DNA of 64,000 nucleotides from a virus, in the UHGV virus genome UHGV-0211740; one strand, 5' to 3'. The notes below the pieces were generated by a model. That model saw only the letters and a list, made by a program, of their open reading frames with translations, had not been told where the DNA came from and ran no database searches. The stretch's first letter is position 1. The number at the start of each line of letters is the position of its first letter. The translations under genes and the position numbers were made by a program. Positions 62,186 to 64,000 of this stretch are shown here, piece by piece.

Positions 62186-62213
62186 TTGACATCTGAAAAC
62201 TGCGGTGTATAAT
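62186..62213 (+). promoter_or_regulatory. consensus sigma70 promoter TTGACA-16-TATAAT
   Basis: Perfect hexamers with 16-nt spacer. Confidence 0.55.
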
Positions 62214-63045: not shown

Positions 63046-63232
63046 GCTAAAATCCGCATGGAACATTGCTGTAGGAGATGAGATCCGCATCCCAGGCGGG
63101 AAGACCATTATGAAGATATCTCGTATTGAGTACGAAGGTGACCGTGTATTCCACATCTTTGCAGAAGATGGTCGAGAAATTTATATACAGGCAGGATCAC
63201 ACATCTATATTCGTAAAGGGGATGACAAATGA
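63038..63232 (+). CDS. hypothetical small protein
   Basis: GGAG RBS; overlaps upstream gene. Confidence 0.4.
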   Translation: MFKLKSAWNIAVGDEIRIPGGKTIMKISRIEYEGDRVFHIFAEDGREIYIQAGSHIYIRKGDDK

Positions 63233-63558
63233 CAGAGATCATCATTTCAACTGCAGGGTATGTATTCCTGACAATCATTGCGCTGATCATCTTGGTGGTG
63301 GTGTATGGATTTGTTATCCTGCCTATTCTTGAGACATTTAGTTTGTGTCGGTGTTGGAGAAAGGCTTACGGTCCACAGCCGTGGAAAGACTGGCCCCATC
63401 TGTTACGCATAGCGTTCTCTTATGCCTATGATCACTCCAGCAGTGCATGCATAACCGGATACCACGCCCACAATTGGAGCTGGGAAGGGTTGAGGAAGTG
63501 GAATGTTACAAAGACTATACCTCTCCGCATGTATAAACCTAAAAACAAAGATAGCTGA
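63229..63558 (+). CDS. small membrane protein (N-terminal transmembrane helix)
   Basis: AGGGGA RBS; hydrophobic stretch YVFLTIIALIILVVVYGFVILPIL. Confidence 0.45.
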   Translation: MTEIIISTAGYVFLTIIALIILVVVYGFVILPILETFSLCRCWRKAYGPQPWKDWPHLLRIAFSYAYDHSSSACITGYHAHNWSWEGLRKWNVTKTIPLRMYKPKNKDS

Positions 63559-63561
63559 TAC

Positions 63562-63590
63562 TTGAAAATTTCTGACATATCAAGTATAAG
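63562..63590 (+). promoter_or_regulatory. possible promoter TTGAAA-17-TATAAG
   Basis: Read directly at the start of the terminal non-coding region. Confidence 0.3.
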
Positions 63591-63869
63591 GGGGATTTCT
63601 AAAATGGATTTCCCCCTTTTTGATATTTTACCCAGCCAGATATTTTAAAATTCTTAGAAAATCAGAAAATGGATCGAAAACTAAAATGGATTTTTTCAGG
63701 ACGGGCGTGGCAAATTGTGCCAATCTCTCCAGCCATTTGCACCATATCCGAGATCACCATTTCAGATTTCCCACACATACACACCTCTCCCCACTACCTT
63801 TCTCTACCTGCTCTTGGTGCTTTATGACGGAAAGCTCATCACTGTTAGTGAGCTGCGGTACAATCTTTC

Positions 63870-63981
63870 CAGTACTCGATCTACTTTTCATTTCAGGGCT
63901 TGGATTTTCTGAAAATTTTTCTCGATAGATTTCTCAGTACTCGATCTGTTTTTCGTTTTCTGAATTGGATTTTCTGGAAAT
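63870..63981. repeat. two imperfect ~47-bp direct repeats in non-coding DNA
   Basis: CAGTACTCGATCT...GGATTTTCTG(A/G)AAAT at 63870-63916 and 63935-63981. Confidence 0.55.
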
Positions 63982-64000
63982 CCAAGCCCCCCAAACACAC

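Follow-up and report, generated by a model that had tools for sequence, protein, structure and literature searches.

In iteron-type origins, such as lambda ori, P1 oriR and those of the iteron plasmids, direct repeat units of 17-22 nt recur at a spacing of ~22 nt. The satellite phage P4 has two separated cis sites, ori and crr, which are bound by its primase-helicase alpha protein, and the origins of T7 and T4 are transcription-activated (a promoter followed by an A+T-rich unwinding region) and dispensable. Packaging (pac) sites, as known from P22, SPP1 and P1 (pacA), lie in or beside the gene for the terminase small subunit. Here, we compare with these systems the repeat-containing end (positions 63560-64000) of a 64,000-nt stretch of the virus genome UHGV-0211740 (hereafter, the window), which sequence comparison assigns to Vequintavirus, the genus of rV5-like E. 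coli myoviruses. The repeats mark the start of a gene-free stretch of roughly 1 kb that is conserved across several genera of rV5-like phages and is probably a DNA site through which genome replication or packaging is controlled. In rV5-like phages, which are common candidates for therapy and biocontrol, neither the replication origin nor the packaging site is known.

In rV5-like phages, an operon terminator is followed by an ancient non-coding module of ~1.1-1.2 kb, the left third of which lies at the end of the window. Two imperfect direct repeats of ~47 bp, which an initial annotation made from the sequence alone had described, were recovered at 63870-63916 and 63935-63981 (81% identical; 65-nt spacing), with an ungapped score of 20; when the 441 nt were dinucleotide-shuffled 200 times, the score was 9.1 ± 1.3 and never exceeded 15. 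They lie in repeat unit 1 (63860-63924; + strand, as are all features of the window given below), with the core CAGTACTCGATCTACTTTTCATTTC...TTGGATTTTCTGAAAAT, a GATC and the palindrome ATTTTC-T-GAAAAT at 63904-63916, and in repeat unit 2 (63925-63982), with the core CAGTACTCGATCTGTTTTTCGTTTTCTGAATTGGATTTTCTGGAAAT. A conservation profile was obtained by aligning the window with 11 related genomes. Unit 2 is almost invariant in all relatives (identity 0.92-0.98), unit 1 being the more variable of the two, and a non-coding block of ~560 nt that begins at 63869 is 0.83-0.99 identical among them, a conservation at least as high as that of the neighboring genes (0.8-0.96). The repeats are present in all 117 Vequintavirus records, and in the related genomes a third unit follows; the units are 47-60 nt long, and the spacing is 65 nt for the first pair and 74 nt for the second. 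Within the 64-kb window, neither the unit motifs nor the motif AAAATGGAT described below has further copies, and no sigma-70-like site was identified in 63560-64000; a general phage promoter motif was rejected on these grounds.

Upstream of the units is Block A (63638-63699), a nearly invariant, A+T-rich stretch of 62 nt that contains the palindrome ATTTTAAAAT and has a mean pairwise identity of 0.97 among the 11 relatives, compared to 0.63-0.72 in the adjoining spacer. With 78.3% A+T, Block A ties for the highest 60-mer in the window; only 0.01% of the 60-mers are less stable, and its stability is 3.5 standard deviations below the window mean, as in an A+T-rich unwinding element. Its positions 63647-63663 are an inverted copy of a 15-17-nt near-palindrome, GATTTTCTGAAAATT, that is found in each repeat unit, an arrangement that is the same in rV5. 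The three AAAATGGAT motifs that had been pointed out at this end of the window start at 63601, 63666 and 63683 (spacings of 65 and 17 nt), the last two within Block A; together they span no more than 91 nt, and neither strand of the window has a further copy. Two GATATTTT octamers start at 63622 and 63639 (region 63622-63646), 17 nt apart, the first upstream of Block A and the second at its left edge. The equivalent place in relatives is occupied by GATATTTG/T repeats in CR3 (three copies), 241Ecol014PP and EC22.5-2, and by GATATTTTAAAATT (KpS8 repeat D4) in KpS8. Between Block A and the units, the spacer (63700-63868) is variable in sequence (62% identity to the relative Bas54) and fixed in length at 169-171 nt. 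It is C-rich and G-poor in 12 of 12 genomes, with a (C-G)/(C+G) of +0.27 to +0.47, a skew opposite to that of the flanking genes.

No conserved open reading frame (ORF) was found in 63560-64000, in agreement with the proposal that the last convincing gene, the stop codon of which ends at 63558, is followed by a non-coding end. Every ORF across the spacer is disrupted by single-nucleotide indels in relatives, the ORF calls over the gap differ in frame, strand and length between annotators of related genomes, and the stop-free stretches over the repeats have neither start codons nor ribosome-binding sites. Further along, in an IMG/VR genome of 137 kb (locus L005), codon 12 of the equivalent of the annotated ORF bas54_0101 has changed from TGG to the stop TAG. 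With no ORF kept in frame with a start codon and a ribosome-binding site, with frameshifting indels and with an in-frame stop, a protein-coding region was rejected; the relatives in which the module is complete give no sign that the region is coding in the full genome. Small ORFs have nevertheless been annotated over it, namely gp194, gp193 and gp192 of rV5 (L001 14422-15557) and bas54_0100 to bas54_0102 of Bas54 (L014 21476-22065); these are probably not genes.

The module extends well beyond the genus. A search with the continuation of the conserved block identified 263 phage records, including members of Certrevirus, Mydovirus, Henunavirus, Phapecoctavirus and an Aeromonas phage genus, and in each of these genera the matching site is a gap of 0.7-1.3 kb without convincing genes. 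In CR3, KpS8 and Hena1 alike, the number of tandem units is exactly three; the units are 40-64 nt long, are spaced 78 and 63, 74 and 67, and 76 and 69 nt apart, respectively, and share with the units of the window the core CTCGATC..GTTTTTC(G)TTTT and/or (A)TGGATTTTC. Because this three-unit architecture recurs in several genera, the repeats of the window are best described as the opening section of an old module that, in relatives, extends mostly just beyond the position equivalent to 64000. No description of the module was found in the rV5 paper, the BASEL paper or the other literature searched.

Downstream of the units are two to four palindromes, AATGAGAAT-N-ATTCTCATT, at a spacing of 29 nt. 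In relatives this array starts ~170 nt past the end of the window, flanked by the hexamers TTGAAT and CAGAAT with 18 nt between them, and its palindromes resemble the consensus of the iron-responsive repressor Fur: two in the 1.2-kb region of rV5 and of Bas54 match it at 15/19 and 17/19, and those in the modules of five other genera at 14-16/19, while no match of at least 15/19 was found in the whole 64-kb window. The Fur-like 9-1-9 palindromes (AATGAKAAT-N-ATTCTCRTT) are located at L001 14953-15240 in rV5 and L014 21757-22040 in Bas54, with further arrays at L016 1450-1560, L017 1437-1555, L018 1498-1549, L019 1504-1525 and L020 1489-1537, and are conserved in virulent phages of Escherichia, Cronobacter, Klebsiella, Erwinia and Aeromonas. 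Two scans of IMG/VR with short patterns, which retrieved for the most part unrelated Fur boxes and chance 15-mers, were set aside. The boxes are immediately followed by a GC-rich core (..CCGGTGATTGTCTCC..; L001 15000-15090, L016 1560-1640, L017 1555-1630, L018 1550-1625 and L019 1528-1605) that is 70-92% identical across the 263 records, which belong to several subfamilies. It folds into a hairpin in which the loop, GUGAUUGUCUC, is conserved and the stem varies by genus (CCGG/CCGG, CCCGG/CCGGG and GCG/CGC); the core is a candidate conserved phage small RNA. RNAalifold identified no convincing consensus structure or covariation among seven sequences of the core. A leftward promoter-like site, TTGACA-17-TGgCACAAT, preceded by an A/T-rich stretch, is located on the minus strand at L001 15233-15205; it is kept in all Vequintavirus genomes examined and directed through the Fur-like boxes toward the repeats. 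Since the spacer is C-rich, a leftward transcript would be G-rich over it, a composition that favors R-loops.

Whether the module can be interrupted was read from a published transposon screen (HIDEN-SEQ) of Bas54 (MaxBurger, MZ501093), for which results are given per annotated gene (bioRxiv 10.1101/2025.11.20.689424); Bas54 is 92-97% identical to the window in the conserved blocks. In that screen, bas54_0099, the homolog of the last gene before the gap, is non-essential, with insertions at 18 of 21 TA sites, and 12 genes upstream and six downstream have insertions at 73-100% of their TA sites. The ORF bas54_0100, which corresponds exactly to units 1 and 2 (window 63855 onward), has insertions at one of its three TA sites, with a mean of 5 reads compared to ~200 in nearby genes. 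For bas54_0101, which consists of unit 3 and the A+T-rich stretch that follows it, none of 11 TA sites has insertions and the ORF was scored essential; bas54_0102, which covers both Fur-like boxes, has insertions at 5 of 15 sites and was scored as having a strong fitness defect. Across the whole Bas54 module, insertions are present at 6 of 29 TA sites and in low counts, in gene-level data that come from a relative of the window. An artefact of selection behind this gap was rejected: the transposon brings its own promoter, so the gap is not due to failed expression of the marker. CRISPRi-ART data for the Vequintavirus EdH4 are not genome-wide. The authors of the screen treat the parts of the module as hypothetical genes; we argue that these three ORFs, one essential, one with a strong fitness defect and one unclassified, are non-protein, and that a compact, conserved and apparently indispensable non-coding module offers a concrete fragment for testing of origin or pac activity.

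A non-coding, conserved and insertion-poor locus fits a cis-acting site such as an origin or a packaging site, the two functions first suggested for the repeats. Our tentative reading, which we would not put quite at an even chance, is that the module is a cis-acting DNA element for replication, most likely an origin-type assembly site. This reading is favored because of the composition of the locus, its repeat architecture, its apparent indispensability and its place where the cluster of replication genes (primase/helicase, DNA polymerase and an SSB-like protein) ends. It also draws on the selection evident in Block A and the block from 63869 onward, at 0.92-0.99 identity among the 11 genomes, and on the non-coding nature and uniqueness of the module. 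Its action at the DNA level, its role in replication and the roles of its sub-elements are what we infer. In such an element, Block A (63638-63699) would be the easily melted stretch, and the GATATTTT pair together with the three units of 63-78 nt (two of them in the window) may serve an initiator as an array of sites for binding or for architecture. Past the window, the module would add host-factor and transcriptional control, with the Fur-like array placed over the TTGAAT-18-CAGAAT promoter-like site and followed by the GC-rich core. If Fur does bind beside an essential cis site, the development of a strictly lytic phage would, unexpectedly, be tied to iron sensing.

By analogy, the module would work most like an origin-type nucleoprotein site, although of the features that define iteron origins it has only the A+T-rich element. 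Like these origins, it has direct repeats beside a very A+T-rich stretch, is unique and conserved, and appears not to tolerate disruption. To this extent the earlier label of iteron-like repeats holds; the label fails for the units themselves, which are only three in number and 47-60 nt long at 65-74 nt, instead of at least three direct repeats of ~17-22 bp in helical register. The Bas54 data also recall P4 ori and crr in that two insertion-free non-coding regions ~11 kb apart share a TGAKAAT..TTCTCA-type box, and the phage, like P4, encodes a fused primase/helicase; there is, however, no sequence similarity to P4, and the parallel is one of analogy only. With T7 and T4 the phage shares a T7-type DNA polymerase with a primase/helicase, and promoter-like sites flank A+T-rich conserved DNA, but the origins of T7 and T4 can be lost, which the module apparently cannot, and the promoters of the module are predicted from sequence.

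Several observations weigh against an origin. No initiator gene was found adjacent to or overlapping the repeats, DnaA boxes are represented by one-mismatch matches at chance level, no IHF consensus was identified, and the likeness to oriC 13-mers is also at chance level. Phages with T7-type replisomes usually tolerate the loss of their primary origin. The insertion data span only three TA sites within the window's own repeats, the conserved loop of the GC-rich core closed by differing stems hints at RNA, and no change in GC skew is seen at the locus, either here or in the rV5 paper. In addition, the second insertion-free region of Bas54 is more iteron-like and could be the origin instead. This region, a 2.5-kb intergenic stretch (L014 32787-35298; Bas54 92786-95297) between convergent units, is the one highlighted by the authors of the screen. 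It contains approximately six TGTGTAAAC-like direct repeats within 100 nt, two GGCAACTATGCAAACGAATGGCATGG-like copies, two tandem TGATA..TTCTCA boxes that resemble the Fur-like boxes of the module, and no tRNA genes.

Among the alternatives, the one that survives best is a regulatory or non-coding RNA locus, in which Fur-repressible promoters would drive rightward transcription of one or two small RNAs, the module would supply both their control region and their body, and the repeats of the window would be upstream regulatory sites or part of a leader that act via transcription. We regard it as possible, if unlikely. It would account for the Fur matches in the modules of rV5, Bas54 and five other genera, none of at least 15/19 being present in the window, for the position of a Fur-like box between conserved -35-like (TTGAAT) and -10-like (CAGAAT) hexamers, for the conservation of the CCGGTGATTGTCTCC segment in 263 records as a hairpin with a conserved loop and differing stems, and for the strong leftward promoter-like site. 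The 9-1-9 palindromes at 15-17/19 between such hexamers, past the window, are also what is seen at Fur-repressed enterobacterial promoters such as ryhB, from which the candidate boxes differ in being found in a virulent phage, in 29-nt arrays and beside an insertion-intolerant region. However, Rfam searches returned only noise (E > 0.5) for the window and rV5 and nothing for five other genera, RNAalifold was unconvincing, the window segment 63560-64000 has no sigma-70-like promoter, and Block A and the individual units fold no better than shuffles. The most insertion-intolerant part of Bas54 (0 of 11 TA sites) is upstream of the boxes and outside the putative RNA, and Fur-repressed RNAs should be off in LB medium, which is iron-replete and was the medium of the screen. 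A composite of the two readings is conceivable, namely an undescribed ancient module of the Vequintavirinae, the Stephanstirmvirinae and an Aeromonas phage genus in which an indispensable cis site, made up of three ~70-nt units and an unwinding block, is physically coupled to an array of host Fur boxes and a conserved structured RNA, such that replication or packaging would be licensed by the iron status of the host or depend on an essential non-coding RNA of the phage; we consider it quite improbable.

Next in order, and likewise improbable, is a pac site, in which the partly palindromic, GATC-containing units would be recognized by terminase to start a series of headful packaging events. The genome was reported as circularly permuted in the rV5 paper, and PhageTerm reports for the genus describe permuted genomes and headful packaging, a mode of packaging that should require one essential cis site; the locus is conserved, unique in the genome and apparently intolerant of insertions. 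As in the pac sites of P1 and SPP1, which are essential in cis, it has repeated short motifs, some with GATC, in putatively bent A/T-tract DNA; the enrichment of GATC in the units of CR3 and KpS8 in particular recalls P1 pac. Yet GATC is not enriched in Vequintavirus or Hena1, and the module is not in or near the terminase genes: in Bas54, the terminase operon is at 1-3 kb and the module at 81 kb, ~80 kb apart. Two assemblies, one of them the window, break or change inside the unit-2 palindrome, as might occur at a packaging site, but branching of the assembly graph at a boundary between conserved and variable sequence explains these breaks equally well.

That the locus is ordinary intergenic DNA, consisting of a terminator and leftover duplications with a conservation that reflects recent recombinational spread, is very improbable. 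The conserved block exists as two haplotypes whose distribution over the genomes is shuffled, which indicates frequent recombination, and the scarcity of TA sites within the window's repeats also leaves room for this explanation. On the other hand, the three-unit architecture and the boxes persist in genera with otherwise non-alignable DNA, the blocks are better conserved than the flanking genes and have a freely diverging spacer between them, and few insertions, in low counts, were recovered across the Bas54 module. A physical genome terminus or terminal repeat, suggested at first by the stop of the window here and by last 18 nt unlike those of any relative, deserves almost no weight, for the genus is reported to be circularly permuted and nearly all of the 117 related records place the locus internally, at many different coordinates, with same-strand genes continuing ~1.2 kb on.

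Other candidates were rejected as well. A non-coding gap with tandem repeats is also present in PhiTE, an rV5-like phage of the same subfamily, where the repeats act as a mimic of a type III antitoxin (pseudo-ToxI; PMC3475682). The PhiTE repeats, however, are 36 nt long, head to tail and beside tRNAs and terminase, and have no sequence similarity to the units described here; a decoy of the ToxI or pseudo-ToxI type was rejected since the locus is a different one, its units are 65-74 nt apart, and there was no Rfam match at E ≤ 1. A host-derived sequence was discarded because no match was found among 5,426 E. coli genomes, and, as CR3 has not retained the GGA and other motifs, a sponge for CsrA and sites for other host regulators were set aside.

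The window departs from its relatives at its very end. The segment 63983-64000 consists of 18 nt, CAAGCCCCCCAAACACAC, that are unique to this genome and occupy the place where unit 3 starts in relatives. They turn the palindrome of unit 2 into a perfect 8-bp hairpin and complete a 21-nt inverted repeat with 63896-63916; the predicted fold of 63869-64000 (z = -3.9) depends on these window-specific nucleotides. A search for the 18 nt in phage records, in IMG/VR, in metagenome and genome contigs and in the related loci compared gave no match, and in an attempt to extend the sequence past 64000, the last 25-28 nt were likewise not found in IMG/VR, the contigs or the phage records. The element had been suspected to be truncated by the window end; relatives do carry on with a third unit, but the difference from all 117 of them at 63983-64000 is not that of a simple truncation. 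An unrelated SPAdes contig, OR845172.1, also ends inside the unit-2 palindrome (L015 3520-3547). The breaks at this palindrome mark either a branch point in the assembly graph or a real rearrangement hot spot.

At the opposite end of the gap, the hairpin GGGGGAUUUC...GGAUUUCCCCC followed by UUUUUGAUAUUUU at 63588-63630 is the intrinsic, Rho-independent terminator of the preceding operon. It starts 30 nt past the stop codon of the last gene, was called both by a terminator scan and by folding (minimum free energy of -17.6 kcal/mol; z = -2.7), and has a T-run after the hairpin. The stem is kept by compensatory changes, with GGGGG/CCCCC in the window, GGAGG/CCTCC in most relatives and GGGGG/CCTCC with a G.U pair in rV5, and a wholly different perfect stem, AGGGAAAAT/ATTTTCCCT, in 241Ecol014PP. 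The hairpin contains the first AAAATGGAT motif and both copies of GGATTTC (63593 and 63606), which had been noted as a direct repeat in G/C runs; the copies do lie inside G5...C5, but as arms of the terminator hairpin and not as a pair of iterons. On the + strand of 63560-64000, GGATTT occurs five times compared to 0.24 expected from its window-wide frequency, an enrichment of ~20-fold.

The operon closed by this terminator begins at a perfect sigma-70 promoter, TTGACA-16-TATAAT (62186-62213), which is P205 in the rV5 annotation. Its last gene (63229-63558) encodes a protein of 109 aa with an N-terminal hydrophobic segment, the homolog of rV5 gp195, that matches PHROG 2531 (1.3e-31), a family of unknown function. 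The + strand of the window corresponds to the minus strand of rV5, all genes around 63560-64000 are transcribed rightward, and in rV5 and other relatives convincing genes restart on the same strand ~1.2 kb past the 109-aa gene. In other lineages, the neighbor of the module is an HNH endonuclease or a NADAR protein instead. Free-standing HNH endonuclease genes are located directly upstream of the module in a Vequintavirus (L006 1794-2438), in Hena1 (L019 426-992) and in Aeromonas phage 2L372D (L020 540-1211); the endonucleases belong to PHROG 953, and Hena1 alone has a weak AP2-domain match. Their presence in three separate lineages suggests repeated homing next to conserved DNA, an insertion site to be expected because the adjoining DNA is strongly conserved. 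Across its last 8 kb, the window is 91-95% identical to 120 phage records. Sixteen or seventeen records of the MG0656xx series that are labeled 'Campylobacter phage', with C. jejuni as the host, show 85-95% identity to E. coli Vequintavirus in this region, so that their label or host looks doubtful.
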